Shown: piece by piece, positions 33,135 through 60,240 of the stretch
How positions within the stretch are numbered: the stretch's first letter is position 1
Layout of the letters: each line of letters begins with the position of its first letter
Assembly: GCA_044222185.1 (NCBI GenBank)
Contig: JBGANV010000005.1
Coordinates: forward strand, 320,001 to 384,000
Direction of reading: 5' to 3'
DNA length: 64,000 nt
DNA from: Planctomycetota bacterium
GTDB lineage: Bacteria; Planctomycetota; GCA-002687715; CAIWVZ01
Position numbers and translations under genes: made by a program
The notes under the pieces: model-generated
Told to the model about the DNA's origin: nothing
Seen by the model: the letters and a program-made list of their open reading frames with translations, nothing else
Database searches by the model: none

Positions 33135-33296
33135 GAGCACTCTCCAAAGGACGGCGGACATCCTACGCCTCCCCTGCCCGCCGAATGCAACCGGTGGATG
33201 GTTGAGACGCCGACGTTCCAGCGGTTGAGTTGCCGCCGACGCCTCCGCGTTGCATCTCAGGTGAAATTCGGCGCGGCGACGCGCTTTGGAACCGGA

Positions 33297-34928: not shown

Positions 34929-35094
34929 GTCCATACCCCCGTCGAGAATCGACGGTCTCCGTGCGAGACCTCGGTTTCGAGCGCGGCACCGCGCCTCCGC
35001 CTGACGCGCGTGCAAGACCCGTGAAGGGCAGCAGATTAGTCGATGAGTCCGGGTCTCGCCAGTGCCCGCGGGTGAAGTGCCGGGGTTGCGGCGC

Positions 35095-36702: not shown

Positions 36703-37068
36703 GAGTAAACCCTCGATCTTCGACCTCGGTCTGGAAGGTCCGCGGTGGACCCGTCGATCCACGAACGAACCCGACGGCGCGGCGACGGTATACGACGCCG
36801 CCGCATTCCGCCAAACAAACCTCACCGCGGCGGTCGGTGGCGACGTGCGCGGGGCTCGGCCCGACGCCCACGGGGTGACCGAACCTCGGCGCAGCAAATG
36901 CCTTGCGCGAGCGGTGCGGGCCGAGCTCCGCAGCCCGCGCCTTCCCGGGGTGACGTCGCCGCAAATCCGGCGTTCCACCCCGGCTTTTCCTCCGAGGGAC
37001 TCTGTGACGAAGCTGGACGAATCAGGCGGCGCCGCCCCGTGCGGCAGTCCAGAGGAGACATGCGTCCG

Positions 37069-38664
37069 ATGAGTACACGCCATGCGTTTCGATGGGTGAT
37101 TTTCACGCTCGTGCTCGCGATCGCGCCCGCGTGCGGGCAGCAGGGTGATCACGGGCACGAGAAGGCGCCGGCCGTCCATGCGGGGGCGCCGGGCTCGCCA
37201 CACGAAACCTCCAAACCGCCGGCGCACGAGCCGGCGAACGGAGGCGCGCCCGCGAAGGCTCATGACGCTCCGCGACCAGGCGGAGGTGAGAAGGCGCACG
37301 CCCCCGCCGGCAAACCGGACGACCACGCGCCTGCGCACGGCGCCGCGAAGGATCACGCGGCCGACGCGCATGACGCCCACGACGCACATGCGCCCGCGGC
37401 ACCCGCGGACGCGCACGCCGGTACCCACGCAGGCGCTGGCGACCCCGACGCGATCTGGGAAGACCTCGCCGCCGGCAATCGGCGCTTCGTCGACGGCAAG
37501 CCGAAGCCGCGCGAGTTCGTGGAGCTTCGCAAGCAACTCGCGACCGGGCAGCACCCACGCGCGGCGATCCTCACCTGCGCCGACAGCCGCGTCGCACCGG
37601 AGATCATCTTCGATCAGAACCTGGGTGACGTGTTCGTCGTCCGCATGGCCGGCGCGACCGCGGACCCCGTGGCCCTCGGAAGCCTCGAGTACGCCGTCGA
37701 GCACCTGCACGTCCCTCTGATCGTCATCGTGGGACACGAGAAGTGCGGCGCCGTCGCCGCCGCAGCCGGCGGCGAGAAGATGCCCACGGCGAACCTCGAG
37801 GCCGTCGTCTCCAACCTCAAGCCAGCGCTGGCGGATCTCCCGAAGGATCAAGTCCAGGCCCGCGGCGTCGGGGCGTGCGTCGACCTCGTCGCCCAGGACC
37901 TGCGCAAGGACAGCCCCATCCTTCGCGAGAAGCTCGACAACGGCTCGCTGACGATCATGCGAACGGTGTATTCGCTGGAGACGGGCGCCGTGGAGCGCCG
38001 CGACGAGAACGTCGAGACGTCCCCCGAGGCCGTGTGGAAGGAACTGGTCGAAGGAAACGCCCGCTTCGTCGCTGGCGAACCCCGCGCCTACAACCTGGCG
38101 GCCCGTCGCCGTCGCGTCGCCGCAGGCCAGCACCCCCGCGCGATCGTCCTCACCTGCGCGGACAGCCGCGTCGCTCCCGAACTGGTTTTCGACCAGAGCC
38201 TGGGCGACGTGTTCGTCGTTCGCAACGCGGGAAACCTCGCCGATCCGTTGTCGCTCGGCAGCATCGAGTACGCCGTCGAGCACCTGCACGCGCGGTTGAT
38301 CATCGTCATGGGACACGAAAAGTGCGGCGCAGTCGCAGCCGCGGTGGCGGGACAGGCCATGCCGACGCCGAATCTCCAGGCCATCGTCGACGACATCGGT
38401 CGAACGATCGCACCGCTGAAGGCGAAAGGTCTTTCGGCCGAGCTGGCGTCTCGCGGTCCGATCGACAACGTCATGCGCGTCGCGAAGGACCTCGTCGATC
38501 GCAGCTCCATCGTGCGCGAGGCCGTCGAGAATGGGCACGCGGGGATCGTCCGCTGTCTCTATCAGCTCGAATCCGGCACGGTCGTCCGCTTCGACGCGCC
38601 GGCGAAGGAAGTGGGCGCGGCCGAGGCGCCGGCCCACCAGGCCACGGCCGAGGGGCATCGATAG
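37069..38664 (+). CDS. Lipoprotein with His-rich linker and two tandem beta-carbonic anhydrase domains
   Basis: Two copies each of CADSRV and GHEKCGAV Zn motifs. Lipobox-like IAPAC. Alternative start at 37060. Confidence 0.9.
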   Translation: MSTRHAFRWVIFTLVLAIAPACGQQGDHGHEKAPAVHAGAPGSPHETSKPPAHEPANGGAPAKAHDAPRPGGGEKAHAPAGKPDDHAPAHGAAKDHAADAHDAHDAHAPAAPADAHAGTHAGAGDPDAIWEDLAAGNRRFVDGKPKPREFVELRKQLATGQHPRAAILTCADSRVAPEIIFDQNLGDVFVVRMAGATADPVALGSLEYAVEHLHVPLIVIVGHEKCGAVAAAAGGEKMPTANLEAVVSNLKPALADLPKDQVQARGVGACVDLVAQDLRKDSPILREKLDNGSLTIMRTVYSLETGAVERRDENVETSPEAVWKELVEGNARFVAGEPRAYNLAARRRRVAAGQHPRAIVLTCADSRVAPELVFDQSLGDVFVVRNAGNLADPLSLGSIEYAVEHLHARLIIVMGHEKCGAVAAAVAGQAMPTPNLQAIVDDIGRTIAPLKAKGLSAELASRGPIDNVMRVAKDLVDRSSIVREAVENGHAGIVRCLYQLESGTVVRFDAPAKEVGAAEAPAHQATAEGHR

Positions 38665-38785
38665 ACGCACCGGGCGCGCGGCCCGAACGCCGCGTGCACA
38701 CGAGTCGACGCATCCCCTCGGTGGCGAGCGCTGCCGCGCGACCTGATACGATCCGCGCCACCGTCCACATCGAGGGGATCGCATC

Positions 38786-40555
38786 ATGTCTCGGACCGCA
38801 TGCGTCGTTCGCGTCTCCGCCATCATCGCGCTGACCGTCTGCATGGCGTCGGCCCAGTCGGCGGCGCCCAAGATTGGGGACCAGGTCGGTGACCTCGGTT
38901 TCGTCGACAGCCGTTTCCTTCCGAGGCGGCTGTCGGACTTCAAGGACGCGAAGGCGATCGTCGTCGTCTTCACCGGCAAGTCCTGCCCGATCGTCAAGCG
39001 TTACCTGCCACGCCTCGCCGCCCTGGATCGAACGCTGCGCGAGAGCGGCGTCCGGTTCCTCGGCGTCAATCCCGTGGACGGCGACACGGTGCTCGACGTG
39101 GCCGCGCAAGCCATGGAATACGACGTGGCATTCCAGGTCGGAAAGGACGAGGGGGGCGCCATGGCGCGGGCGCTGGGGGTCACGCGTCTCGCCGAGGTCG
39201 TGGTCCTCGACGGCACACGGCGCCTGCGGTACCGAGGCCACGTCGACGGTCAGTACAGACTCGGCGGCGCGAGCCCCGCCGTGGGGCGCGAAGACCTTCG
39301 CGAGGCCATCACCGCCGTCGTCGCGGGCAGGGATGTGGAGGTTTCCGAGACCGCCGTCGACGGATGCGCGATCGCCGCACCGGAATCGCGACCGACGGCC
39401 CCGGTCACGTTCCACCGCGACGTCGTGCCCGTGTTGAAACGGAACTGCGTTTCGTGCCACAGCTCGGGCGGGGACGCGCCGTTTCCGCTGACGTCCTACC
39501 TCGACGCCAAGACGAACGGCGGCATGCTTCGCGAGGTCGTGCACGGACGGCGGATGCCGCCATGGCTCGCGTACGGCGACACGTCGGCGTTCGCGAACGC
39601 CCCGACCATCACTGACGCCGAGCGCAAGATCCTCGAGGATTGGGTGAGCGCGGGCATGGCGGAAGGCACGGCGGAGGCTTCAGCCGAATCCCGTCCCACA
39701 CCCCCACTCCGTTGGAAGATCGGCGAGCCCGACCTCGTCCTGCGTTCACCCGAAGCCGTTCGCATCCCCGCGGAAGGCTTCGTGACCTCGCAGACGGTGA
39801 TCCTCCCGCACATGTTCGACGTGGATACCTGGGTCAACGGGATCCAGATCCTCGCCGACAACGCCAAGGTGATGCATCACGCGATCCTCGTCGTCGTGCG
39901 CCCGAACGAGATGCCGACGCCAGACGGACTCCTCGCCACACAGGTGCCCGGCGGGCAGCCCCTGCTTCTCGCCGACGACACCGCCGTCCTGATCCCCCGC
40001 GGAACGGTCCTGGCGCTTTCGCTGCACTACGTGACGACCGGGAAGGTGGAGCGCGATCAGTTGTCCGTCGGTCTCCGTTTCCCCAAGGTCCCCGTGAAGC
40101 ACCGACTCCGCTACCACCTTGTGGTGAACGAGAACTTCGAGATCCCCCCGGGCGATCCAGCGTTCGCCGTCGCGGCGGAGAAGCCCCTGCCGACGGACGC
40201 GAGACTCATGTGGCTCTTCCCGCACATGCATCTGCGGGGCCGCGACATGAGCTTCACGGCGACGCTGCCGGACGGCACGTCGGAGAGCCTGCTGTCCGTC
40301 CCCAGTTTCAGCTTCGACTGGCAGGCGACCTACTACTACAAGCCCAGCGGTCACCCTCTGCCGAAGGGCACCGTGATCTCGTGCCGCGCGCGTTTCGACA
40401 ACTCGCCGTTCAACCCGTTCAACCCCGATCCGAAGGCGAAGGTGCATCACGGCTACGACGTGACGTCCGAGATGATGTACGCGTTCGTCGGGTACCTGGA
40501 TCCGGCCGAATCGCTGAACGTGCTCGTGGACCCGAAGACTGGCCGCGGGAAGTAG
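38786..40555 (+). CDS. Secreted redoxin + c-type heme + copper type II ascorbate-dependent monooxygenase-like protein
   Basis: Signal peptide. Thioredoxin-like SCPI...YRG.VD domain. CVSCH heme motif. MHHA, LHY, PHMHLRG and SEM copper-monooxygenase motifs. Confidence 0.8.
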   Translation: MSRTACVVRVSAIIALTVCMASAQSAAPKIGDQVGDLGFVDSRFLPRRLSDFKDAKAIVVVFTGKSCPIVKRYLPRLAALDRTLRESGVRFLGVNPVDGDTVLDVAAQAMEYDVAFQVGKDEGGAMARALGVTRLAEVVVLDGTRRLRYRGHVDGQYRLGGASPAVGREDLREAITAVVAGRDVEVSETAVDGCAIAAPESRPTAPVTFHRDVVPVLKRNCVSCHSSGGDAPFPLTSYLDAKTNGGMLREVVHGRRMPPWLAYGDTSAFANAPTITDAERKILEDWVSAGMAEGTAEASAESRPTPPLRWKIGEPDLVLRSPEAVRIPAEGFVTSQTVILPHMFDVDTWVNGIQILADNAKVMHHAILVVVRPNEMPTPDGLLATQVPGGQPLLLADDTAVLIPRGTVLALSLHYVTTGKVERDQLSVGLRFPKVPVKHRLRYHLVVNENFEIPPGDPAFAVAAEKPLPTDARLMWLFPHMHLRGRDMSFTATLPDGTSESLLSVPSFSFDWQATYYYKPSGHPLPKGTVISCRARFDNSPFNPFNPDPKAKVHHGYDVTSEMMYAFVGYLDPAESLNVLVDPKTGRGK

Positions 40556-43111: not shown

Positions 43112-46100
43112 TCACTGGCCGTTCAGCGAAAGCGTCCAGGAGTTGAGCGTTCCGACGTCCGCTGCCGCCAGGTCCTGGACCTTCAGGCTCCAGTTGCCGG
43201 TGACGCTCTTCCCGACGAACGTCGCGAGCGAGGCCGCCGGCACGGTGAGGTCCGGGAACTCGGTCTGGATGTTGTCGGTCGCCCCGCCCGTACGGTTGTG
43301 CAACAGCACGGCGGTTCCATCGGGCGCGATCAAGGTGACGACGAGGTCACCCTTGTAGGTGTGGGTGATGTTCACCTTCACCTTCACGCCCGAAACGAAG
43401 CCCGAATCGGAGTAGTTCAGGATGCTCGTGATCCCCGTGGCGTTGTTGTCGGGGATGGCCAGCGCAGGCGACGCCGACTTCTCGCCGTTGAACGAGACGT
43501 TCCACGAGTTCAACGTGCCCACGTCGGCCGCCGCCAGGTCCTGCACGCGCAGGCTCCAGCTTCCCGACGTGTTGAGGCCGTTGAACACCGACAACGCCTG
43601 GTTCGGAGTCGTGAGGATCGAGTACGTGGTCACGATGTTGTCCGTGCCGCCGCCCGTGCGGTTGTGCAGGATCGCGGAGGCTCCCGAGGGTCCCGTCAGC
43701 GTCACGACCAGATCGCCCTGGTAGGTGTGCGTGACGTTGACTGAAACCGCCACGCTCGTGATCGCCTGCGAGATCGGCACGACGATCGCACTCGTGACGC
43801 CCGTGGCGTTGTTGTCCGGGATCGCGAGCGCGGGGGACGCGGAGTACGTCTTGACCTGACTCGATCCGGCAGGCGGGCTCACGGTCAGCGACACGGCCGT
43901 CGTGCGCGTGAGGGCTCCGCCGGTTCCCGTGACGGTGATGTTGTAGGTGCCGGCAGGCGTGGCGGCGCTCGTCGTCACGGACAGCGTCGAGCTGCCGTTG
44001 GCCGCCATGGGATTCGGCGCGAAGGCGTAGGTCACGCCCGTGATCGCGGGCGACGCCGACAGCGTGATCGTCGACGCGAATCCGTTCACGGCCGTGTTGG
44101 ACACGGTGTAGGTCGTGGAACCGCCCTGCGTGACGGCGCGCGTCGCCGGGCTCGCGGCGAGCGAGAAGTCAGGCGTCGGCGCGCTGACCGTCCCGTTGGA
44201 GACGACGAGAGCGAAGTCCTGATCCGTCGTGTCGGCATTGCCCGGCACGCCGTCGCCCGCGACGTTCGTCGCGCGCACGGTCACGGAGAACGTGCCCGTG
44301 ACGCCCGCGGGCAGGAACACGAACTCGGCGTTATTGCGCGTGTCCGCGGCCCCGCCCGTGACCGAGCTGGCGCCGGAGAACACGTTGCCGCGGTACAGCG
44401 TCCCGTTGACGGTGACTTCCAGGTCGAGGTCGTTGACCCAGGCGTTGCCCGTCGTGGCCCCCGGCTTGTCCGTCCAGGTGAGACCGACGCGGAACGGCTG
44501 CGCCGACGTGGCGATCGTTCCGCTCACGGTGTACGTCTGCCCGGTCGTGCCGAACACCTGGGACTGATCCACGCGGATGTTCGACGTGCCGTTGAACGCG
44601 CGGCCGAGGTCCACGCTGCCCATGCCCTGGTTGTTCGACCAGAGCGTGTCGTTCGCGCCGACCCCGTTCTCGTAGTGCGCGGCCGTCATGAGCCACGCCT
44701 TCACCATGGCCGGGCTGGGGGTGCCGAATCCCTGGTTGATGAAGAACTGGCGAACGAGCGCCGACGCGCCCGACGTGGCCGGCGTCGAGTGACTCGTTCC
44801 GGACGACCAGGCGTAGAGCGTCTGCGCGGCCGGCCAGAACTGATTGCACACTCCCGATCCGTTGTAGGAGAGCGAACGACTGGCGGCGCCCTGGATGTGC
44901 GTGCCGGGCGCGACGATCTCGGGCTTCTTGCGCAAGTCCGCCGTGGGGCCGCGCGAGGAGAAGTTGATGATGTCGTTCGCGTTGTCGGCACCCGAGTTCG
45001 CGACGGCGCATCCGTCCGTTCCGGTCTGACGGTCGTTCTCGCTGGCGCCGACCGTGATGATGTTCTTGCCGGTCGCCGGCGGACGGACGGTGTTCGCCGC
45101 CGATCCGTCGTTGCCCGCGGCGAAGACGACGGTCATCTCCTGGTTGCCGGCCGTTCCCGCGACGGCGTCGCGCACGATCGTGTCGTGCTCCTGGGCATCG
45201 ACGTTGTAGTTGTTGCCGGAGATGAAGCCCCACGAGTTGCTGCTGATGCGCGCCCCGGCGTTGTACGCCGCGGTCAGCCGCGCCGTGGCCGACTGTGTGA
45301 ACTGGCTCCCGGTGCCGTTGGAGAACACCTTGGAGTTGCCGAGCTGGACGAAGGGGCAGAGTCCCAGCCCGTAGTTGTATCCGCTCGCGTCCTCCGCCGC
45401 GGCGCCCGTCAGGCTGTTGTATCCGCCGACGATCGACGCGTTCAGATTGCCGTGGCCCCCGCCGCCGTCGGCGAGTGCGTCACTGGTGTAGTTGTTGTTG
45501 TAGACGATGCGACCGGCGCCCGCGGCCGTTCCACCCACGCGGAACTCCACGTTGATGTCGGTCGTCGAACCGCGATCGATGCCGTCGTCCGTCACGTCGA
45601 CGACGAAGCCGAACTGCCCGGTCTGGCTGAATCCCTTGGATGCGAGCCACGCCAGGTATCCCGGAGCCGAGGGACTCGCCCCCGTCGCAGTCACGTTGCC
45701 GGCCATGATCTGTCCCTGGCGCTCGTCGAAGCGACGCTCGGCGTACTTCCGCTCGATGGCGAAGACGGACGGGTGCGCGGCGAGGTACGGAAGGATCCCG
45801 TTGGGAACGTGCATGTGCAGGTTCAGGTAGTTCAGCACGAGGCTCGACGGGCGGATCTCGCGATACCCCGCATCCACGAGGCCCATGACGACCGGGACGG
45901 CTTCCTCGTCCGCGATGAACTGGATCGTGACGTCCGACTCGCCGGCGCCGTTGGCGGCGTCGTCGCGGAGGTCCGGTGCAATCTTGAACACGGGCTCATA
46001 GGTCCCCGTCCAGCCCACGAAGTCGCGGGCCGAGAGGTCGTCGAACGCCGCCTGCGACGACGGCGGGACGGCGACGACGTACGTGTTCTGCGGCACGTAG

Positions 46101-46597
46101 GCGATGATCGTCACGCCGGTGGCGGAGAGTTCGTCGAGCCACTGGTCCTTCACGGGTCCGATGAATTGCACGAGGCGGAGTTCGCGTCCCGTTTCGGCAG
46201 CGACGGCGACGCCGCCCTGGCGCAGGATCGCCGGCACGCCGGCGAGCTGAGTCGACACGCTTCGGCCGCCGCGCGTCCCGATCGGCAGACCGTTGAAGCC
46301 GATCACTCCCTGTTCGTCACGGACCTCGACGCCGAGCGCCCGCAGCGCCTCGGTCCCACCGAGGGCCGTGCTGTCGACGAGCACGGCAGCGAACGATCCG
46401 TAGTCCTCGATGTGCCTGACGACGCCGCGTGAGATCAGCACGTCGAGGGCCCGGTCTCCGTTTCGGACGAACACGCTATCGATGCGCGAACTCGCGTCGC
46501 CCCGACCGTCGCGCGCGATCTGCGCCCAACCGGAAGTCGACGTCACGAGAACCACGGCCAGAAGGAACGACAGGACGGAACCTCGGCGTACGTGCAT
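43112..46597 (-). CDS. Secreted S8 subtilisin-like serine protease (KP-43-like) with two proprotein-convertase P domains (1161 aa)
   Basis: Triad TDDG / GHG / SGTS, plus NSWG and FAAGNDG. Two IPDNNATG...THTY.GDL...W.L.VQD repeats. Signal peptide. AGGAG RBS. Confidence 0.92.
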   Translation of the reverse strand: MHVRRGSVLSFLLAVVLVTSTSGWAQIARDGRGDASSRIDSVFVRNGDRALDVLISRGVVRHIEDYGSFAAVLVDSTALGGTEALRALGVEVRDEQGVIGFNGLPIGTRGGRSVSTQLAGVPAILRQGGVAVAAETGRELRLVQFIGPVKDQWLDELSATGVTIIAYVPQNTYVVAVPPSSQAAFDDLSARDFVGWTGTYEPVFKIAPDLRDDAANGAGESDVTIQFIADEEAVPVVMGLVDAGYREIRPSSLVLNYLNLHMHVPNGILPYLAAHPSVFAIERKYAERRFDERQGQIMAGNVTATGASPSAPGYLAWLASKGFSQTGQFGFVVDVTDDGIDRGSTTDINVEFRVGGTAAGAGRIVYNNNYTSDALADGGGGHGNLNASIVGGYNSLTGAAAEDASGYNYGLGLCPFVQLGNSKVFSNGTGSQFTQSATARLTAAYNAGARISSNSWGFISGNNYNVDAQEHDTIVRDAVAGTAGNQEMTVVFAAGNDGSAANTVRPPATGKNIITVGASENDRQTGTDGCAVANSGADNANDIINFSSRGPTADLRKKPEIVAPGTHIQGAASRSLSYNGSGVCNQFWPAAQTLYAWSSGTSHSTPATSGASALVRQFFINQGFGTPSPAMVKAWLMTAAHYENGVGANDTLWSNNQGMGSVDLGRAFNGTSNIRVDQSQVFGTTGQTYTVSGTIATSAQPFRVGLTWTDKPGATTGNAWVNDLDLEVTVNGTLYRGNVFSGASSVTGGAADTRNNAEFVFLPAGVTGTFSVTVRATNVAGDGVPGNADTTDQDFALVVSNGTVSAPTPDFSLAASPATRAVTQGGSTTYTVSNTAVNGFASTITLSASPAITGVTYAFAPNPMAANGSSTLSVTTSAATPAGTYNITVTGTGGALTRTTAVSLTVSPPAGSSQVKTYSASPALAIPDNNATGVTSAIVVPISQAITSVAVSVNVTHTYQGDLVVTLTGPSGASAILHNRTGGGTDNIVTTYSILTTPNQALSVFNGLNTSGSWSLRVQDLAAADVGTLNSWNVSFNGEKSASPALAIPDNNATGITSILNYSDSGFVSGVKVKVNITHTYKGDLVVTLIAPDGTAVLLHNRTGGATDNIQTEFPDLTVPAASLATFVGKSVTGNWSLKVQDLAAADVGTLNSWTLSLNGQ

Positions 46598-46740: not shown

Positions 46741-49700
46741 CTATCTGCCGAGCAGGAGCGGCGTGAAGTAGCGGTAGTAGACCTCGAGGCTCAGGACGCA
46801 CATCGCGGTCGTGTACGCCCGGTTGCTCCGCGTGTCGCCGGCGAGACGCGCGTACTCGTCGATGGGCTCGAAGGATCCGTCATCCGACTGCCCTCGAGGG
46901 AGGACCTGCTTCAGGGCTGCATTCCACCGCGTCCAGGTGTCGCCTCCCGCCATGAAACACGCGAGGCTGCCGTAGTACCAGAAGTACACGTTTCCTGCCG
47001 CCATGCGGACGAACTCGTCCGAGCTGAACCGGCGGTAGTCGGTGGGACGACGCTCGAGCGTGAACTCGAGTCCCGCCGTGAGCCGGCCGTCGTCCTTCGG
47101 CGTCCCGAGGAGGAGCAGCGCGAACACGGCGGCTGGCGTGGACGCGGGCAACGTGCGCCAGTTCGATGCGAGCCGGCTGGGTTCCCGGTTGTACAGGAAG
47201 CAGCCGGTTTGAGCGTCGTACTCCTGGAGGAGGAACGACTTGGCGAGCGGCAGCACGTCGTCGCGCACGCGGAATCCGGAGAGCTTCGCCGACTCCAAGG
47301 CCATGACCTGCCACGCGCTGATGGAGGTTCTCGCGAACCCATCCTCCGGCGAGAGGCTGGCGGAGAAGTATCCCCACCCGCCCTTGCTGCGCTTGTCGCG
47401 GGAACGGTTCTGCTGAGAGACGATCCAATCGACCGCGCGCTGGACCGGCTCCTTCAGGCGAGCGTCCTTCGTCAACCCGAAGCATTCGGCGAGTGCGTAG
47501 GTGCTGATGCCGTGGCTGTACGAGGAGGTCTCACCGAAATGCCCGCTCTCCTGATCCTGGATCTTCAGGAGGTAGTTCACTGCCCGCGTCGTGTTGCCGG
47601 CGTAGGGGCCATCTCCTCCGGGAGCGTGGCCCGCACCGAGGAACGCGAGCAGACACAGGCCGGTCTTCCCCACCGTCACGTGTCCGTACTTGGGATCGAC
47701 GGTGCGCGGATCGCCCCATGACCCGTCCTTGTTTTGGATGCGCGCGAGGTACGCGAGGCCCTTGGCGACCGCCGCCTCGGTCTCGCGGGTGCCGCCGAAC
47801 TTCTCGAGCGCTTCGACCTTCCCTGGTCCGAAGCGGTTCTGGAAGACGGTTCCTCCGAGAGCGATCGCCGGCATGGCCGGGGCCCCGCGGGAAGCCCGGG
47901 GCGCCGGCTCCACGAGCGAGCCCGGCAGCGTCACCGAAGCCGCAAGCCCGCCATCGCCACGATCGTCCGTCGGCGCCGCGGTGCGACCGGGCTTCGACAC
48001 CGCGGCTGACGCCGGTCCGCCGAACCCGGGAAGGTCGAGCGGGCGCAGCGCCCCGGCCCCCCCGGTCGACCCCATCGTGCCTGACGCGTCGCGTCCCGGA
48101 CGGTGAGCTCGACCCGTCGCGACGATGGCGTCGCGCAATGGCATGTCCGACGGGCCCGGCAGCGAGCGCGCCGCGAACCTCGCGCCGCCCATGGACGGCA
48201 CGTCCACGGCCGAAGCGAGATGGGCGCCGCCGCGCTCCAGCGCCGAGCCCGGCACGACGACGCTCGCCGGCCGCTCGCCGGAGGTGCCGAGGTCGGACGT
48301 CTGGCGTCGCGCGGCCCCCGCGAGCACCGGCTGCCCCGTCGGGCCGTGACCGCCCGCATCCACCGAGGGCTTGAGCGGCGCAGGTCCGGCGTCGTGTCCA
48401 CCGCGAGTGCCTCCCGCCTCCTTCGCGACGGCCGCGATCCCGTCGGCGACACCGGCAGTTGGCGCGTGAACCCCGCGAGCGACGAGCGGTGTCCCGTTCA
48501 TGGACGGGAGCTCGGGAGCCGCACGGCCCGAGCTCCGGCCACTCTCGACCGCCGAACCCGGCATCGCGACGCCGATCGTCCGGTCCCCGTCGCCGGCACC
48601 GGCCGGTGGCGCTGGCCGCGTCGCCTTCGCCGCGAGTGGTTGCCCCGACGGGCCAGCCGCACCCGCGGTGCTCGAGGGCGCGATGGGAGCAGCGTCGCCG
48701 TCGTGACCGGACCGGCTCGCGATCGCCGACGAGTCCTTCGACGGAGCATCCGACACGCCGGCCTGCGGCGCCGTCATCGCACCGGCCGCGAGCGGTGCTC
48801 CGGAATCCGGCGCGGGAACCGCCGCGCTCCCGACGCGCGCGCCGGAAGCCCCCGACGGCCCCGTCCCGCCGACCGCGCTCCCGGGAACGTTGACGACGAT
48901 CCGCTCGTCGACGGCCGCGGTCGTCCGCCCCGTCGCGGTCACGGACTGGTCCTGTGCGGGCGCAGGCAGGGGCGATGCGGCGACCTCCGTCTGCGTGACG
49001 TCGTGCCCGGACTTCACGTCGGGGGACGGCGCGGCGTCCTTCAGGTCGTTCGTCAGCTCCGCCTTGGCGACGGCGGCGTTCTCCGCGGGCGCGGCGGTCG
49101 TGGGCAGATCGGGTGTGGCCCGATCACCGCTGGTCCGATCGACCATCACGACTTCCGAGCCGGGCGCGACCGCGGTCGGTGCGTCCGCGTGACCCGAGAA
49201 CTGGAGTTCGCGTGCCATTGCGGCGGCGGAATCACCCGCCGCCCCCCCGCTCGAAGGCGAGCCGCCCGAGGCCGACGACACGAGGTCCACCTCGAGTCCA
49301 CCCACGTAGGGCGCGACGGGTTTCAGCGTCGTGACGAGCTGCACGTCGCGCAACAGCCACAGGACGAGGAGATGCACGAGAAGCGAGAGAATCACGCACC
49401 ACGTGATGAAGTCGAGCGTGCGGAACCGCTTGCCAAGCTGGAGGAGCAAGAGGATCAGCACCGCCGCGATCATGGCGAGGATCAGAAGCCGCTCGAGATC
49501 GCGCTGACCTTCCCACCACGGATACACTTCGTGCGCGGAGGCCCGGTAGACGAGGGCCGGGTCGGTGGGCTTCACCAGCATCAGTCCGAAGCCCTTGTCG
49601 ACGGACACGGGCCCGCGGGCCTCGCCGCCGAGTGCGAGCTCGGGCATGGCAAAGGGCTCGACGAACTGGCCGGCATGCCGCCACGTCCGCATCACGACGG

Positions 49701-50430
49701 GCTTCTCGCCGAGCGTGTGCCGGACGAACCACAGGCCCGTCCCGTCGGGCGCGAGCCACGGATCGCGATCGATCCACAGCTCGTTCGGCTTGTCGATCTC
49801 GAAGACCGGCCGTTGCCCACCGGCCGCGTCGACGAGGATGAGCCTGCCATTTTGACCGCGGTTGGCGTTCGGATCGCGTCGCACGAAGACCCAACCGCCG
49901 TCCGGATCCGCGCAGGCGTCCGTCTCGTCCAGCTCCGTGTTGATCCCGTCCGGCAAGCGGTGAACGTCCGTCACGCGCAGCCCCACGAGGCGCGCCGACC
50001 ACAAGTCGAATCCGCCGGCGCCGCCATCGCGATCCGACGCGAAGACGATGCCACCATCGGGCGCGAGCGCGGGGGAAAGGTCGTGGCCAGGTGCGTTCAG
50101 CCCCGGTGGCGCGATGGCGCCCATGTCCCGGTGCGCGGGGTCGAACACCACGAGGTCGGTGCTGCCATCGGCGAGCCGGCGAGCATAGAGATAGCGACCA
50201 TCCGGCAGCGGTTGGACGCGTCCCTCGACGGGCCCCGGCAACTCCGTCTCGGGGCGCGGTCGGTCCCACACGAGCTGTGTCGCGGCGACGAGCTCGGTCG
50301 CGGCGATCGGCGATCGTCCGTCGGTGTAGTAGAGCGGCCGACCCGTTCGGAGGAACACGTAGCCCGCGAGCGCCGCGACGAACACGGCGATCGCACCACG
50401 CATCATCCAGCGACGAGTCTGCGTCGTCAC
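46741..50430 (-). CDS. Membrane protein: TolB/PD40-like propeller, TM helices with SxxxH, Ala/Pro/Gly repeat linker, prenyltransferase/squalene-oxidase-repeat (alpha/alpha) barrel
   Basis: SPALAPDG...FASDRDGGAGGFDLW. SLLVH TM helix. GLAYLARIQNKDGSW, QQN...GGWGY and GQSDDGSF repeats. GTGA overlap with exbD. Confidence 0.75.
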   Translation of the reverse strand: MTTQTRRWMMRGAIAVFVAALAGYVFLRTGRPLYYTDGRSPIAATELVAATQLVWDRPRPETELPGPVEGRVQPLPDGRYLYARRLADGSTDLVVFDPAHRDMGAIAPPGLNAPGHDLSPALAPDGGIVFASDRDGGAGGFDLWSARLVGLRVTDVHRLPDGINTELDETDACADPDGGWVFVRRDPNANRGQNGRLILVDAAGGQRPVFEIDKPNELWIDRDPWLAPDGTGLWFVRHTLGEKPVVMRTWRHAGQFVEPFAMPELALGGEARGPVSVDKGFGLMLVKPTDPALVYRASAHEVYPWWEGQRDLERLLILAMIAAVLILLLLQLGKRFRTLDFITWCVILSLLVHLLVLWLLRDVQLVTTLKPVAPYVGGLEVDLVSSASGGSPSSGGAAGDSAAAMARELQFSGHADAPTAVAPGSEVVMVDRTSGDRATPDLPTTAAPAENAAVAKAELTNDLKDAAPSPDVKSGHDVTQTEVAASPLPAPAQDQSVTATGRTTAAVDERIVVNVPGSAVGGTGPSGASGARVGSAAVPAPDSGAPLAAGAMTAPQAGVSDAPSKDSSAIASRSGHDGDAAPIAPSSTAGAAGPSGQPLAAKATRPAPPAGAGDGDRTIGVAMPGSAVESGRSSGRAAPELPSMNGTPLVARGVHAPTAGVADGIAAVAKEAGGTRGGHDAGPAPLKPSVDAGGHGPTGQPVLAGAARRQTSDLGTSGERPASVVVPGSALERGGAHLASAVDVPSMGGARFAARSLPGPSDMPLRDAIVATGRAHRPGRDASGTMGSTGGAGALRPLDLPGFGGPASAAVSKPGRTAAPTDDRGDGGLAASVTLPGSLVEPAPRASRGAPAMPAIALGGTVFQNRFGPGKVEALEKFGGTRETEAAVAKGLAYLARIQNKDGSWGDPRTVDPKYGHVTVGKTGLCLLAFLGAGHAPGGDGPYAGNTTRAVNYLLKIQDQESGHFGETSSYSHGISTYALAECFGLTKDARLKEPVQRAVDWIVSQQNRSRDKRSKGGWGYFSASLSPEDGFARTSISAWQVMALESAKLSGFRVRDDVLPLAKSFLLQEYDAQTGCFLYNREPSRLASNWRTLPASTPAAVFALLLLGTPKDDGRLTAGLEFTLERRPTDYRRFSSDEFVRMAAGNVYFWYYGSLACFMAGGDTWTRWNAALKQVLPRGQSDDGSFEPIDEYARLAGDTRSNRAYTTAMCVLSLEVYYRYFTPLLLGR

Positions 50431-50849
50431 CGAGGTTGTCCCTCACCGTCCGGTTGAGCCGCGATCGAGACCTTGCGGAGCGATGCACCCAGGCACGCGT
50501 CGAACGCCTTGGCGACGACGCCGAACTGCGCCGACGTGTCGCCGCGGATGAGGACCTCCTGGTCCTTGTTCCGCTGGGCGGCGGACTTCAGTTTCTGGTG
50601 CAACGCCTCGACCGTCACGACGCGGCCGTCGACGTGGAGCGCCCCATCCCGCGTCACGTTGATGACGAGGAGGTGGGCATCCTTGCCCGCCTTGCCGTTG
50701 CGAGCCTCGGGCAGCGTGAGTCCCATCTCGACCTGCTCGACGGCGAACGTAGTCGACGCCAGGAAGAAGATCAGGAGGAGGAACACCATGTCGATCATCG
50801 GCGTGAGGTTGATCGTCGCCTCTTCCTCCTCGCCGCGGTCAAGACGCAT
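50427..50849 (-). CDS. exbD: Biopolymer transport protein ExbD/TolR
   Basis: INLTPMIDMVFLLLIFF with the conserved Asp, and VLIRGD. Confidence 0.92.
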   Translation of the reverse strand: MRLDRGEEEEATINLTPMIDMVFLLLIFFLASTTFAVEQVEMGLTLPEARNGKAGKDAHLLVINVTRDGALHVDGRVVTVEALHQKLKSAAQRNKDQEVLIRGDTSAQFGVVAKAFDACLGASLRKVSIAAQPDGEGQPR

Positions 50850-51513
50850 GGGTCACCGTCGCCGGGCGGAACGCGATGCGGTCGACGACCGGGCTCAGCT
50901 TCTCCTCCACGAGCGTCACCAGGCGGCGCACACGACTCGTGAGGTGTGCCGAGAGGACGACGACGGGAATGGCCACGAGCAACCCGCCGATCGTCGTGAT
51001 CAGCGCAACCTCGATCCCGTGCGCGAGCTGCTCCGGCTTGCCCATGCCTACCTTGGCCACCACGCTGAACGCCTCGTGGATTCCGACGACGGTCCCGAAC
51101 AGTCCGAGCAGCGGAGCCAGATTGGCGATGATGTTGAGGGGCCGGATGTTGCCTCGAAGGCGTTCCAGTTCCTTCGAAGCCTGATCCTGCATGGCGGTTT
51201 CGATCTCCTGCGTCGTGAAGCCCGCGCGACGCAGGCCGGCGGCGAGGATCCGCGACGCCGGGGCGTCGACCTTCTTGCAGGCGTCCAGGGCCGCCGCCAC
51301 GTCGCCGCGTTCGGCGGTGGCGATCACTTCGTCCAGGGCCCTGGGGCAGACGCGACCCCGCGACAGCTTCGCATACCGTTCGGCCGCGAACGCCAGCGCA
51401 ATGACCGAGCAGATCCCGATGGGGACCATGATCGGGCCGCCGGAGGCGAGGAAGTCCCAGGCGCTCTGCAGCGTCGCCACTTCGTTCATGTTGAGGAGCG
51501 GGAACATCGTCAT
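50839..51513 (-). CDS. exbB: MotA/TolQ/ExbB proton channel protein
   Basis: GGPIMVPI, APLLGLFGTVVGI and GIEVALITTIGGLLVAIP. Start overlaps the TPR stop (TGATG). Confidence 0.92.
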   Translation of the reverse strand: MTMFPLLNMNEVATLQSAWDFLASGGPIMVPIGICSVIALAFAAERYAKLSRGRVCPRALDEVIATAERGDVAAALDACKKVDAPASRILAAGLRRAGFTTQEIETAMQDQASKELERLRGNIRPLNIIANLAPLLGLFGTVVGIHEAFSVVAKVGMGKPEQLAHGIEVALITTIGGLLVAIPVVVLSAHLTSRVRRLVTLVEEKLSPVVDRIAFRPATVTHAS

Positions 51514-54500
51514 CAGCCTCCGAGTGATCCGAGCCTGTTGCGGGCTTCCTTCGCCGACTCCGACTCGGGGAAGCGCTGCAAGAGCTCCGCATAGAGTTTG
51601 CGAGCCTTGTCTTTCTGATCGCGATCCTCGAAGCACCGCCCCGCGAGGAGGAGGCCCTGCGAGACCCATTGCGGGTGCGTGTAGAGAATCGAGAGTTTCA
51701 GGAACGCGTCCACGGAGCCGTCGAGCTCTCCCCGGTCGCGGCGGGATTCGCCGAGCCGGAACTGGGCCTCGGCCGCCAGTTCGCCGTCACTCAGCTGCGT
51801 GACCTTCGTGAGCGCAGCCTCCGCCGCGGCGTAGTCCTTGAGCTCGATGCGCCCTCGTCCGACGAGCAAATTCGCCCGGGCCGACGCTGCGCGGTCCTTC
51901 CCGTCATCACGGGCGATGAACTGCTCGGCGGCGGCGACGGCCTCGGACGGGCGCCGCAACGCCATCTCGCAGGTCGCGAGCGAAAGGCGTCCACCTTGCG
52001 CTCGCGCGTGGTCGGGAGATTCCTTCACCATCCTGCGGAGCGGCGGTGCTGCCGCCTCCCATTGCCCGAGCCGCGTCCGGGTCTCGCCCACGAGGAACAG
52101 GCCTTCATGGAACAACTCCCCCTCGCCGAGGGCGACGAGCGCCTCGAACGCGGTTGCCGCGTCGGCCAGACGATTCTCGTCCAGCAGGCTGAACCCGGCC
52201 CGATAGAGCGCGCGCGCCTGATGTTTGCCCTTCACCCCGGCGAACATCTCGCGGGCAGCATCGCCCTTCTTCTCTGCGAGGAGCGCCTCGCCGATCTGCG
52301 TGCGGGCCTCACCGGCGAGGTCGTCGTCCTTCGAGGACTCGACGACGTGGCGGAACGCGTCGATCGCCGCCGGCTTGTCATTCAACCTCTGACAGCACCA
52401 CGCGAGCTCGTACCAGACGCGATCCGGCCTCGCCGTCGCGTTCGCTGCGGCGAGCCGCGCAAGGCGAGACCGCGCGGCCTCATCCTTCCCCGAGCGCGCC
52501 TGGGCCACGGCGAGCGCGTAGCTCACGTCCGCGGCGCGGGCATGTTTGGCAAAGCGGCCGAGAAAATCCGTCGCCGACGCCTCGGCCTCCGCCCAACGCT
52601 CCTTCTTCACGTGAAGCGTCGTCAGGAGCTCGAGCAGGCTCGCCGCGAGGTCACCGACCGCGGGGTGCGCGAGGCCGCGCGCGACCTCGCGCCGGCATCC
52701 CCCGTCGTCATCCAGCTCGAAAGCGCACCATGCAAGCCCTTCGATGGCCCGGGCACCGGTCGTGCCCTCGACGGCCGCGAGCTTCGCGTAGGCATCCCGC
52801 GCGCCTTCGAAGTCGCCCTGCTGGAAGAGGATCTCGGCGGCCTGCAGCCGGTCGGTCGTCATCTCCTCGGGCGTGGCGCCGCTGGCGGAAGACGCCGCCG
52901 CAAGCCGTTCCGAGGCTCCCCGGAGATTCCCCTGCTTCTTCAGGACGCGGGCGGCGACGCGTTCCGTCCGCCCCAGGAACGAACCCTGCCGGTAACGGGC
53001 CCGGTACCGATCCGCGGCGGCGAGCGCCGCGTCATCGTCGCCAGCCTGCAATGCGGCCAGCGCGACCATGGAGAGCGCCTCCTCGCCGAGCGCGTCCTTC
53101 TCCTGTCCCGCCGCGAGGGCGCCGAAGGCCTCTGCGGCCTCCTTCGCGCGCCCGGCGAGATACGTGCACCACGCACGCTTGAACGCGGCCTTGCGCGCCA
53201 GCGGATGATCTGCGGGAACGGCGGCGAAAATCGGTGCGGCCTCGTCGAATCTCTTGAGCGCAAAGAGATTCTCGGCCTCGGCGAACTTCGCCTGGACGGC
53301 CAGCCGGTGCTGCGGCTGTGACGACGTCAGCGTTCGAAGCCGCGCGAGCGCGGCGTCGAACTGACCGAGCTTGTGGAGCGCGAGAGCCTCGCCGTACAGC
53401 GCGTCTCCTGCGAGCGCCGCATCCGCGGCGCCGGCCGCCTGCCTGTACTCCGGTGCGGCCTTCTCCCATCGTTCCTGCGCGGCGAGCGCCTCGGCGAGCT
53501 GGTAATGGAGGCGAGTCGTCGTCACCGGGTCCTTGGCGACGGCGAGTGCCTGCTCGAACAAGGGAGCTGCCTCGGCAGCCTTCCCGCCGTCGAGCAGAGC
53601 CACCCCGCGCAGCTCGAGCGACGGCGCCATGAGCTCGGGTGACGTCTTGTCGCTTCCGGCGAGCTCGCCCAGCTCCTTCGCCGCCTGATCGGCCTTGCCC
53701 TGCTTGTAGAGGATGCGTCCGATCTCCAGCCTCGCGCGGGCCAGGTGCGGAGAGTCCGGGTATTTCTTGACGATCTCGCGGAGGAACGGAAGCGCGTCGT
53801 CCGGCTTGCCGCCGTCGATGCGGCATCGCGCCAGCCCCATCGCCGCATCGTCCGCGAATTCGCCGCCGGCCTTCTTCGCGATCGCGAGCGCTCGATCAGC
53901 AGCCTCGAAGTCGCCGGCGCGAAGGGCCGCCTCGCCCTGGAGATAGCGACACTCGGCGGCGGCAGCATGTGCCGGATACCTGTCGGCCACGGCGCCAAAC
54001 GCCTGCGACGCGTCCGCCGCCTTGCCCCCGTTCAACAAGATGAAGCCAGCGGCGTAGAGGGCCGGCGCCGCGTACTGGCCATCCTTCGATTTGTCCGATT
54101 GGGCCGACGAGACGAAGGCCGTCAGCGCCTGGTCCGTCTTGCCCGCATCCCGCCAGCACTCGCCAGCCGCGAACTGGGATGCCGCGCTCAAATAGTGATC
54201 GGCCCCCGACTCCTCGACGAGCTTCTGATACTGCTCGGCGGCCTCGCCGTGGCGGTTGGCGACCTTCAACGCGTTGCCGAGTCGATAGCGACACTCGGGT
54301 CGAAGCTCGAAGGCCTCCCCCTTCGCGAGAGCGCGCTGGAACGCGACGATCGCCTGGTCGTTCTGCTTGAGCTCGGCGCGACAGGTGCCGAGCCGATACC
54401 AGCCCTCGGTCGCCATGCGATGACGCGGCGACTCCTTCAGGAACTGCTCCAGTTGCTGAGCAGCCTCGTCGTGAAGGCCGCGCTGGATCAACCCGAGCGC

Positions 54501-54599
54501 GAGCTGGAATTTCTCGGGGGGACGCGCATCGGGCTCCTGCGCGAGGGCGAGTCCGGATGCGAGGGTCAAGGCGAGGAGGACGGCCGGACGGGACACCAT
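51513..54599 (-). CDS. Periplasmic tetratricopeptide-repeat protein (CpoB/BamD-like repeats), 1028 aa
   Basis: Signal peptide MVSRPAVLLALTLASGLALAQ. More than 20 TPR-like units (e.g. KKYPDSPHLARARL, LLQRFPESESAKEA). Confidence 0.88.
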   Translation of the reverse strand: MVSRPAVLLALTLASGLALAQEPDARPPEKFQLALGLIQRGLHDEAAQQLEQFLKESPRHRMATEGWYRLGTCRAELKQNDQAIVAFQRALAKGEAFELRPECRYRLGNALKVANRHGEAAEQYQKLVEESGADHYLSAASQFAAGECWRDAGKTDQALTAFVSSAQSDKSKDGQYAAPALYAAGFILLNGGKAADASQAFGAVADRYPAHAAAAECRYLQGEAALRAGDFEAADRALAIAKKAGGEFADDAAMGLARCRIDGGKPDDALPFLREIVKKYPDSPHLARARLEIGRILYKQGKADQAAKELGELAGSDKTSPELMAPSLELRGVALLDGGKAAEAAPLFEQALAVAKDPVTTTRLHYQLAEALAAQERWEKAAPEYRQAAGAADAALAGDALYGEALALHKLGQFDAALARLRTLTSSQPQHRLAVQAKFAEAENLFALKRFDEAAPIFAAVPADHPLARKAAFKRAWCTYLAGRAKEAAEAFGALAAGQEKDALGEEALSMVALAALQAGDDDAALAAADRYRARYRQGSFLGRTERVAARVLKKQGNLRGASERLAAASSASGATPEEMTTDRLQAAEILFQQGDFEGARDAYAKLAAVEGTTGARAIEGLAWCAFELDDDGGCRREVARGLAHPAVGDLAASLLELLTTLHVKKERWAEAEASATDFLGRFAKHARAADVSYALAVAQARSGKDEAARSRLARLAAANATARPDRVWYELAWCCQRLNDKPAAIDAFRHVVESSKDDDLAGEARTQIGEALLAEKKGDAAREMFAGVKGKHQARALYRAGFSLLDENRLADAATAFEALVALGEGELFHEGLFLVGETRTRLGQWEAAAPPLRRMVKESPDHARAQGGRLSLATCEMALRRPSEAVAAAEQFIARDDGKDRAASARANLLVGRGRIELKDYAAAEAALTKVTQLSDGELAAEAQFRLGESRRDRGELDGSVDAFLKLSILYTHPQWVSQGLLLAGRCFEDRDQKDKARKLYAELLQRFPESESAKEARNRLGSLGG

Positions 54600-58598: not shown

Positions 58599-60011
58599 TC
58601 ACTTCCCGACGCTGCGATCGGGGAGCGCCCGGACGGGGTCGACCGGCTCGCTCAACGTCGCGAGCCGCAGCAGCGCCAGCGCCTCGCCGCTCGCCCCGAG
58701 CATGAGATCGATGCCGAATTCGTCCTCGCTGCGCTCGTGCGCGGACGCCCCGTTGCGCCATTTCACGCCGTCGCCGTCGGGGCGCGCCGAGGCCAGGAGA
58801 TAGCTGCCCGCCCGGACGGCGAAGTCGCGGAACTCCGCCTTGCCCGTGGCGCGATAGAGGTCGCAGAAGAAGTCGGTGACCCCGGCGACGCCGCAGCACA
58901 GGCTCGGCGGAACGTCCTTGGGCTTGACGCCGCGGGCCGTGGCCGCGTCCGCGTAGCCCACGAGCCACCGCGCGGCCGAAAGCGCCGTGTCGAGGTAGCG
59001 CGCGTCACCGGTCTGGGCATGGAGGAGGAGGAAGAGGCGGGCGGTTCCCGGGGGTCCGTGACACCACCCGCCCATCATCGTCTTGGAGCCGTCGACGGCG
59101 GGCCAGGCCTGCGTGTCGCCGGCATGGACGGCGTGATCCATCAACCAGGCGGCCCCGGCTCGCGCGGCCGAAGCGCAGGCGTCGTCCTTCGCCGCGGCGC
59201 CGATGCGCGCGAGCGCGTAGGCGACACCGGCGGTCCCGTGACTGAAGTTCGGCATGTGGCGGTCGCCGGCGATCGGCGTCGTCCAGAACAGCGTCTTGCG
59301 CGCCGAATCGGTCTTCAGCGGGCCCGCCGCGCCGCGCGAGACGAGCCACCGGCCCGCGGCCGCCGCGCCCTCGACGAATCGCGGCTGCTTCGTCTCCGCC
59401 CCCAGGTCCAGGAGGAAGAGCGCCGTTCCCGCCGCGCCGAAGATGATGTCGACCTGGGAGTCGGGCCAATGCAGGCGATCGCCGTCGCGGATGCCCGATG
59501 CCAGGAGCGAATCGCCGACCTCGACTGCCGTCGTGAGCGCGGCGTCGTCCTTGCGGAGCCTCGCGCGAACGAGGAATGCCTGGCCGATGCCCGCGTCGCC
59601 GACGTACAGCGAACTCGCGCCGGGCTGGTCCGCGCTGCCGGCCCACGTGATGGACTTGCCGCTGCGACGGGCCGACGCGAGTAGGCCCTTGGCCGTCGCA
59701 TCCGCGAGCTTGCGAGCCTGTTCGTCGTTCATCACGGCGGCCGCGTTTTCGAGGAAGACGAGGACGCCCGCGCTGCCGCCGTAGACGATCGGTGCGGGGT
59801 CCGCATCGGAGTCGGCGGATGGGCGGAAGCGGACGGCATCCGGAACTCCGTCGACCGGCACCGCCTGGCGGGCGATCCACGACAGGGCGCGAGTCACCGT
59901 GGCGCGGACCTCGCCGACGGCGGGTTTGGAGTCCTGCGCTCGACCGAGGGCCGCGAGCACGAGGCAAGCGAGTGACAGGGTGAGCGACGCACGCGAGCGG
60001 ATGGGGCTCAT
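58599..60011 (-). CDS. Secreted LanC-like (lanthionine synthetase C-like) protein (470 aa)
   Basis: GxxG repeats (YGGSAG, YVGDAG, IFGAAG, SHGTAG, WCHGPPG, LCCGVAG, MLGASG). Signal peptide. Confidence 0.85.
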   Translation of the reverse strand: MSPIRSRASLTLSLACLVLAALGRAQDSKPAVGEVRATVTRALSWIARQAVPVDGVPDAVRFRPSADSDADPAPIVYGGSAGVLVFLENAAAVMNDEQARKLADATAKGLLASARRSGKSITWAGSADQPGASSLYVGDAGIGQAFLVRARLRKDDAALTTAVEVGDSLLASGIRDGDRLHWPDSQVDIIFGAAGTALFLLDLGAETKQPRFVEGAAAAGRWLVSRGAAGPLKTDSARKTLFWTTPIAGDRHMPNFSHGTAGVAYALARIGAAAKDDACASAARAGAAWLMDHAVHAGDTQAWPAVDGSKTMMGGWCHGPPGTARLFLLLHAQTGDARYLDTALSAARWLVGYADAATARGVKPKDVPPSLCCGVAGVTDFFCDLYRATGKAEFRDFAVRAGSYLLASARPDGDGVKWRNGASAHERSEDEFGIDLMLGASGEALALLRLATLSEPVDPVRALPDRSVGK

Positions 60012-60240
60012 GAGGGAACTCCGGTTCGGGAATGGGAACGACAGGTTGGGCACGATCGGGCGCCGGCGCAACGGATGGGTCGGCGGCGGGACATTCGATG
60101 GCGCACAAGACGCATTGCCACGTTCGCGCGGGGCGGAGCCCCGCGGTCCGGCCGGGGATGAACCCCGGCGCTCCGGCGCTCGCGCGCTCCGGGGGCGCGT
60201 ATCATCGGCGTTCCCTTCTCACCCAGCAGGAGCCCGACTG

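Follow-up and report, generated by a model that had tools for sequence, protein, structure and literature searches.

A toroid-headed candidate force transducer encoded behind an ExbB-ExbD motor in a planctomycete

Introduction

What does an ExbB-ExbD motor pull on when the gene behind it encodes neither TonB nor TolA? The question is raised by a four-gene operon of a Planctomycetota bacterium (assembly GCA_044222185.1), located in a 64,000-nucleotide stretch of contig JBGANV010000005.1 (positions 320,001 to 384,000), which we call the window. Genes for a tetratricopeptide repeat (TPR) protein, ExbB and ExbD are followed there by a gene for a protein of 1229 residues, in which a preliminary description of the window had seen a Ton/Tol-like transducer ending in an (alpha/alpha)-barrel. 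Our analysis supports this proposal, and we consider it likely that the 1229-residue protein serves the motor encoded before it as force transducer: the conserved Ser/His pair, the orientation of its membrane helix and the operon order speak for it, and to these we add a strand resembling the D-box of TonB and the docking Ser of ExbB.

Planctomycetes have a wide periplasm. They take up macromolecules in an energy-dependent manner through a machinery that is still unidentified (PMC12673574), and the available part of the supplement of PMC12204202 records no recognised Tol-Pal system for them. The same work (Williams-Jones et al., 2025) predicts force transducers headed by the von Willebrand factor A (vWA) domain in bacteria of the Planctomycetes-Verrucomicrobia-Chlamydiae (PVC) group, encoded behind TPR, tolQ-like and tolR-like genes. 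Here and below, what is said of papers cited by PMC number refers to the portions of their text available to us.

Results

All four genes are read from the minus strand, each one abutting or overlapping the next (Table 1), as expected of the coupled operon first described. For exbB, the start is either the ATG that overlaps the TPR stop (51513) or an alternative ATG at 51507; a scan for promoters and terminators 3' of the operon found nothing. Scanning species genomes gave 548 confirmed stretches and yielded 79 loci, chosen by similarity of the barrel; the order TPR-exbB-exbD-transducer is kept at 60 of these loci. Sixteen of the remaining 19 are cut by contig ends, one has exbBD on a contig that ends before the TPR gene, and two lack the motor. 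Among loci uncut by contig ends exbBD is present at 61/63, and a TPR gene lies upstream at 60 of the 61 loci carrying exbBD. The 1229-residue protein has 220 homologues at E<=0.001, mostly full length among the best listed, and those with a named source come almost throughout from Planctomycetota. Clustering of the genes flanking the 79 loci revealed no partner common to several clades or to the window, and no recurring receptor.

Three membrane helices are indicated in the 1229-residue protein both by hydropathy and by an AlphaFold2 model of its residues 1-401 (predicted local distance difference test, pLDDT, 89). The third is the VILSLLVHLL helix with its SxxxH signature noted at the outset; those ten residues occupy 49395-49366, with the S-x3-H core at 49386-49372, and the helix does follow a short basic loop, GKRFR. 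We examined the motif in 120 sequences, the query and 119 listed homologues (the best of the 220). Its His is kept in 118 of them, the other two being fragments without the region. In an alignment of 109 rows, from which the two fragments and nine apparent near-duplicates were left out, His353 is invariant (109/109) and is the sole invariant column before residue 866, although the helix around it is otherwise variable; residue 349 is Ser in 99 rows and Ala in 10. With the His kept to this extent, and with just 21 of 1043 background open reading frames (ORFs) of the same genome containing a hydrophobic [SAGT]-x3-H helix, the match is not due to chance.

The charges around the helices, again across the 109 homologues, suggest how the protein sits in the membrane. 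Net charge is +2.0 over the ten residues that precede helix 1, the loop between helices 2 and 3 has 2.1 Lys/Arg versus 1.2 acids, and the segment after helix 3 is acidic. By the positive-inside rule, the propeller and the C-terminal part would be periplasmic, and helix 3 would run from the cytoplasm outward (N-in/C-out), like the helix of TonB and TolA.

Downstream of this helix, the strand LEVDLV alternates hydrophobic residues as the D-box does. In TonB, the hydrophobic pattern of the D-box peptide (residues 43-54) begins 25 residues past His20 (PMC10907165, PMC12215075). A strand of this kind lies 18-38 residues after His353 in 96 of the 109 homologues, starting at +26 in 71, compared with 1-14/109 in five control windows; the pattern was derived from PMC10907165, but it was formulated after the alignment had been viewed.

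The motor subunits carry the residues that such a partner would need. With residue equivalence to E. coli assigned by motif position, and numbering from the ATG at 51507, ExbB Ser34, Thr139, Thr172 and Pro181 are each conserved in 62/62 sequences, as is the membrane Asp20 of ExbD. These correspond to the ExbD Asp, the ExbB pore Thr pair and the docking Ser and Pro of the 5:2 ExbBD and TolQR motors. In E. coli, Ser16 and His20 of TonB touch ExbB Ser34, Trp38 and Pro190 (PMC12215075). A complex prediction with four ExbB copies and helices 2-3 scored 0.00, with the fold of the partner uncertain, and speaks neither for nor against docking.

Between the strand and the head lies the long flexible linker that had been described, a disordered spacer rich in Ala, Pro, Gly and Ser. 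Across the 109 homologues, 299-836 residues separate the His from the barrel (median 483), with 24% Ala and 12% Pro; the spacers fall into length groups near 360 and 460. In this protein the tripeptide PGS recurs at residues 423, 516, 624, 727 and 836, a spacing of 93-109 residues. A repeat unit could not be established: self-BLAST found none (0/109, possibly a failure of the method), and a repeat hidden Markov model matched shuffled spacers almost equally well at low thresholds.

The head is modelled as a 12-helix toroid (pLDDT 92, pTM 0.93), and the protein has no Pfam match to TonB_C (PF03544) or to vWA, so that an (alpha/alpha)-barrel does stand where TonB has its C-terminal domain. The folds nearest to it are those of class II terpene cyclases, namely the beta domain of squalene-hopene cyclase (1gsz: Z 26.6, root-mean-square deviation 3.0 over 293 aligned residues) and MstE (template-modelling (TM) score 0.6), with which it also shares QW-type repeats; some toroids that act on glycans come close to this (Z 23-24). 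The residues with which the inner helices begin (Y971, H973, D1030, R1034, W1040, Y1149, W1151 and Y1152) are kept in 79-80 of 80 barrels. These likenesses and this conservation are what one would expect if the toroid were an active enzyme or a lipid or isoprenoid carrier, a relative of the cyclases whose chemistry is new and which the motor moves, itself or its cargo, between the membranes instead of making it pull on a protein. The catalytic motif tells against it. Identity to the cyclases is 13-20%. When the barrel is aligned by profile with four genuine squalene-hopene cyclases, DxDDT falls on R1034-T-S1036-I-S (RxS(V/I)T in the family) at a probability of 97-98%, other registers being possible but weaker, placing Ser at the general-acid position in 77/80 barrels and in 54/57 of the wider family. 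DxDD is matched elsewhere in 19/80 barrels, scattered over seven unconserved places. Tyr971, suggested as the catalytic position by cyclase topology, was replaced by Ser1036 on the strength of this alignment; neither is an acid. Protein prenyltransferase beta subunits bind zinc through a DxC...H motif, and thioester domains carry CxEQ; in the 80 barrels, DxC occurs anywhere in six and CxEQ in none. Moreover, a true squalene-hopene cyclase (775 bits) is encoded in the genome besides the barrel, and another genome (G136, 94% complete) has an orthologous barrel and no squalene-hopene cyclase that we could find. We therefore judge an enzymatic or carrier role of the toroid unlikely. The strong conservation of one barrel face suggests a binding pocket; matches in the ESM Atlas are confined to planctomycete and verrucomicrobial barrel clusters and say nothing on function.

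The N-terminal propeller had been called TolB-like, which is true of its repeats and less so of its architecture. TolB is the best sequence match (E 1e-7, with a gap the size of one blade) and supplies the top Foldseek matches (E 1e-11, TM score 0.41), whereas VIA-align places five-bladed glycoside hydrolases first (Z 17-18.3) and six-bladed TolB behind them (Z 16.6). Judging from the model, the propeller is probably five-bladed, and it lacks the TolB N-terminal domain (PF04052). The TPR protein exceeds the cut-off of TIGR02795 (YbgF/CpoB-like) by a wide measure, 218.8 bits versus 90.1, with nine stretches matched.

Table 1. The operon genes and the parts of the 1229-residue protein, in window coordinates.
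Feature	Position	Strand	Remarks
TPR protein	51513..54599	(-)	1028 aa; cleavable signal peptide, N-terminal hydrophobic segment; Pfam TPR families; periplasmic
exbB (ExbB/TolQ motor subunit)	50839..51513	(-)	PF01618 (MotA/TolQ/ExbB), E 4e-30
exbD (ExbD/TolR motor subunit)	50427..50849	(-)	140 aa; PF02472, E 7e-32
1229-aa gene, candidate force transducer	46741..50430	(-)	GTG start overlaps exbD stop; Pfam PD40, E 3e-5, and SQHop_cyclase_C, E 5e-10
Helix 1, N-terminal anchor (residues 9-27)	50350..50406	(-)	hydropathy; present in 105/109
Periplasmic beta-propeller (about residues 50-302)	49525..50283	(-)	PD40/TolB-type repeats; model pLDDT 89
Helix 2 (residues 315-333), back into the cytoplasm before basic loop GKRFR	49432..49488	(-)	hydropathy, model, charge pattern
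Helix 3 (residues 342-360), S349-x3-H353, candidate ExbB-docking helix	49351..49407	(-)	alignment of 109
D-box-like strand LEVDLV (residues 379-384), candidate ExbD-binding motor box	49279..49296	(-)	alternating hydrophobic pattern
Ala/Pro-rich low-complexity periplasmic spacer (residues 385-860)	47851..49278	(-)	composition
(alpha/alpha)6 toroid head (residues 861-1229)	46744..47850	(-)	squalene-cyclase-related; catalytic Asp replaced

Outside the window, the genome (7.08 Mb, 93.8% complete) holds a complete ordinary Ton cluster on another contig, C14, with the sole TonB_C of the genome. Its only receptor of the TonB-dependent type and its five OmpA-domain genes are likewise on contigs other than that of the operon, in keeping with the earlier remark that the window has neither such a receptor nor Pal. 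Two lipoprotein-like genes (L129:5276-6037 and L130:5638-6351) combine a coiled coil with an OmpA/MotB peptidoglycan-binding domain and are possible outer-membrane tethers.

The same genome has further proteins with an [S/A]xxxH helix. A second operon, on contig C1 (L001:8365-16118), opens with a barrel protein of 545 aa that bears an AxxxH helix, followed by a pair of TPR proteins, ExbB and two copies of ExbD, and a third AxxxH barrel protein is encoded on contig C4. An FHA-helix(AxxxH)-spacer-vWA protein on contig C1 (L125:6968-9088), with no motor gene among the adjacent listed ORFs, belongs with the vWA transducers already published and has, in addition, an FHA domain on the cytoplasmic side. 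The helix thus bears three kinds of head in one genome: TonB_C, vWA and toroid. ExbD-type periplasmic domains (PF02472, E 3e-9) are fused to the same barrel in a secreted-looking protein on contig C7 (L131:5523-7502, minus strand), and occur alone at C1:1391115-1392023.

Across the phylum, the barrel profile matched 137 of 151 genomes. Twenty-two matches reach at least 460 bits, mostly long frames like the 1229-residue gene, and the next score is 307. From the best other matches we picked 40 stretches with 56 barrel proteins, of which 45 include a helix of the hydrophobic [SAGT]-x3-H type, in most cases 100-145 residues upstream of the barrel, against the 21 of 1043 background ORFs given above. 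In family f7, TonB_C is found in 0/8 genomes and the barrel in 8/8, and in 4/4 stretches exbD directly precedes a propeller-less, two-helix version of the barrel protein. For the exbD-barrel pair, homologues with a name include Rubinisphaera brasiliensis WP_013628552 and Caulifigura coniformis Pan44_04800. In 9 of the 40 stretches (L086, L087, L091-L094, L107, L116 and L123), mfd and a gene for a SurA-like peptidyl-prolyl isomerase are followed by short genes for SxxxH-barrel proteins, many of them arranged in tandem. One paralogue (L102) has a Pfam anti-sigma-type zinc finger ahead of the SxxxH helix, and L103 and L110 look similar; in L104 and L111 the barrel is followed by HEAT repeats.

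This distribution bears on a gliding or surface-motility machine like AglRQS-GltG, whose barrel would engage an outer-membrane adhesion complex. The gliding machinery of Myxococcus has the same layout of TPR, motor and transducer. Motility has also been proposed for the vWA-headed relatives (PMC12204202, section 8). Yet no outer-membrane or adhesin genes recur in the flanks of the 79 loci, the genome also encodes flagellar MotA/MotB, and so wide a presence in the phylum is more housekeeping-like; we regard such a machine as highly improbable.

Elsewhere in the window, the gene immediately downstream of the operon encodes an S8 subtilase with two P-proprotein domains (43112-46590, minus strand). 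It probably begins at the ATG near 46590 rather than at the GTG at 46801, and it is not a conserved neighbour at related loci. The minus strand further encodes a large cluster of a non-ribosomal peptide synthetase (4109 aa, with a terminal reductase) and a polyketide synthase (2272 aa) at 5901-28277, three consecutive Kelch-propeller proteins at 31518-38997, and, at 58599-60071, a LanC-like protein that stands alone and seems to have a signal peptide.

Discussion

The protein is best understood by what it shares with known arms and where it departs from them. With TonB of E. coli it has in common an S-x3-H helix of predicted N-in/C-out orientation, a D-box-like strand at +26, a Pro-rich spacer, the linkage to exbBD and the motor residues; unlike TonB, it is polytopic and lacks TonB_C, it has no receptor nearby, and a real TonB system exists elsewhere in the genome. 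The sequence of helix 3 is close to that of TolA, IIISAVLHVILF (PMC12215075), and the operon recalls tol-pal through its CpoB-like TPR protein and TolB-type repeats, but the C-terminal domain of TolA, the N-terminal domain of TolB and pal are all absent from it, and its propeller, unlike TolB, is membrane-tethered. From class II terpene cyclases the head differs also in being, by the predicted topology, periplasmic on a long tether. The nearest match is the vWA-headed class (PMC12204202): the His-bearing membrane helix, the motor box, the disordered spacer, a non-TonB head and the operon layout are shared, and the differences are a toroid instead of vWA, an additional propeller, a further two helices, a single exbD where the others have a pair, and a spacer of about 480 residues instead of about 100. 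We think that the toroid-headed arm probably works as TonB and TolA do while being a member of neither family.

The machine had been called uncharacterised. This holds for its barrel-headed form: we found no barrel-headed transducer in the literature searched, which mostly did not cover subscription papers. The terms squalene, prenyl and terpene are absent from the available text of PMC12204202, as are squalene and prenyl from the part of its supplement searched, and PMC12419801, PMC12905483, PMC12283558, PMC5147048 and PMC12505986 yielded nothing on a toroid-headed system. PMC12324236 reports a two-domain, uncharacterised squalene-hopene-cyclase-like clade in PVC bacteria, with an architecture different from that of the toroid-headed transducer. 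The layout itself is not new, as the vWA-headed class that shares it is already known, as a prediction; what is new is the toroid head on such an arm.

Several observations weigh against a motor-driven arm. The position equivalent to ExbB Trp38 is Leu or Val in 59/62 sequences and Trp in none, a departure also seen in the ExbB beside the true TonB of this genome, which has Leu there. Conservation of the SHLS motif is partial in its second half (position 360 is Leu in 58/109 and Phe in 36/109, and no conserved Ser follows); the Leu (+7) and Ser (+11) are less conserved in TonB too (PMC12215075). The median spacer far exceeds the 110-335 residues of TolA domain II (PMC12204202). As for Tol partners, no Pal was identified in the genome, where two OmpA-domain lipoprotein-like genes reach at most 39 bits versus the Pal cut-off of 125, and at the completeness given above no TolB N-terminal domain was found there. 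Across the loci, chosen as they were by barrel similarity, mean identity is 58% in the barrel versus 43-47% in the motor, which would fit an enzyme too; a mirror-distance correlation between barrel and ExbB (rho 0.80) was set aside, being explained by shared descent. At two loci (L055 and L071), the TPR and transducer genes have no exbBD in between. Finally, the strict D-box pattern occurs in just 5 of the 45 short paralogues with the helix, and exbB or exbD in 6 of the 40 stretches, so that coupling to a motor is less well supported for them.

Some of these points would be natural if the SxxxH helix were a mere anchor or oligomeriser, co-transcribed with the motor and not energised by it, while the motor drove another transducer, such as the vWA-headed protein or one of the short paralogues of the barrel. 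The two loci without exbBD, the other [S/A]xxxH proteins of the genome that have no motor of their own and the many short paralogues away from motor genes all fit this. It is hard to square, however, with an invariant His in the membrane, a D-box-like strand at TonB spacing, linkage to exbBD at nearly every uncut locus and overlapping frames, and we find it improbable.

If the protein is indeed a transducer, we infer the following sequence of events by analogy with Ton and Tol. By way of its Ser/His pair, helix 3 would dock on the outside or rim of the ExbB ring; the ExbD dimer would grip the strand 26 residues past His353, and proton-driven rotation of ExbD would reel in the long spacer. The toroid would then be a non-catalytic binding head, pulling a partner at the peptidoglycan or the outer membrane, and the TPR protein and the tethered propeller may serve as scaffolds or regulators, like CpoB and TolB.

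What such an arm does for the envelope is a matter of guesswork. We would give an even chance to tethering or remodelling of the envelope, as in Tol, a job favoured by the parts that resemble CpoB and TolB, by the absence of a receptor linked to the operon and by the presence of a Ton system elsewhere in the genome. Macromolecule uptake comes second, and we advance it with reserve, on account of the glycoside-hydrolase-like fold of the propeller and of the as yet unassigned uptake machinery (PMC12673574). Lipid handling seems unlikely, and any other job very unlikely.

More broadly, toroid-headed transducers might form a third, phylum-wide class of Ton/Tol arms that replaces Tol-Pal or powers macromolecule uptake, with a spacer fitting the enlarged periplasm and at least one essential member; we put this forward as a speculation, and a doubtful one when taken whole. 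A lead comes from Planctopirus limnophila, in which Plim_3131 (ExbB COG), Plim_3133 (ExbD COG) and Plim_0306 (COG1657, squalene cyclase) have insertion indices of 0.005-0.006 and appear in the essential-gene figure of PMC10632474, while the hopanoid cyclase gene shc can be deleted (PMC9907078). Plim_0306, with a PulG-like gene and a phosphoglycerate mutase as neighbours (PMC10632474), may, judging by its COG label, be an essential toroid-headed arm; homologue searches and a cluster look-up returned no Planctopirus protein among the matches listed. In V. spinosum, the one exbB orthologue listed is non-essential.

A conserved arm linked to a motor is a concrete candidate for the transfer of energy to the planctomycete envelope, and it offers sites that can be mutated: His353, the strand at residues 379-384 and Asp20 of ExbD. 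It also means that many planctomycete proteins annotated as squalene cyclases or prenyltransferases are probably envelope proteins and not terpene enzymes.

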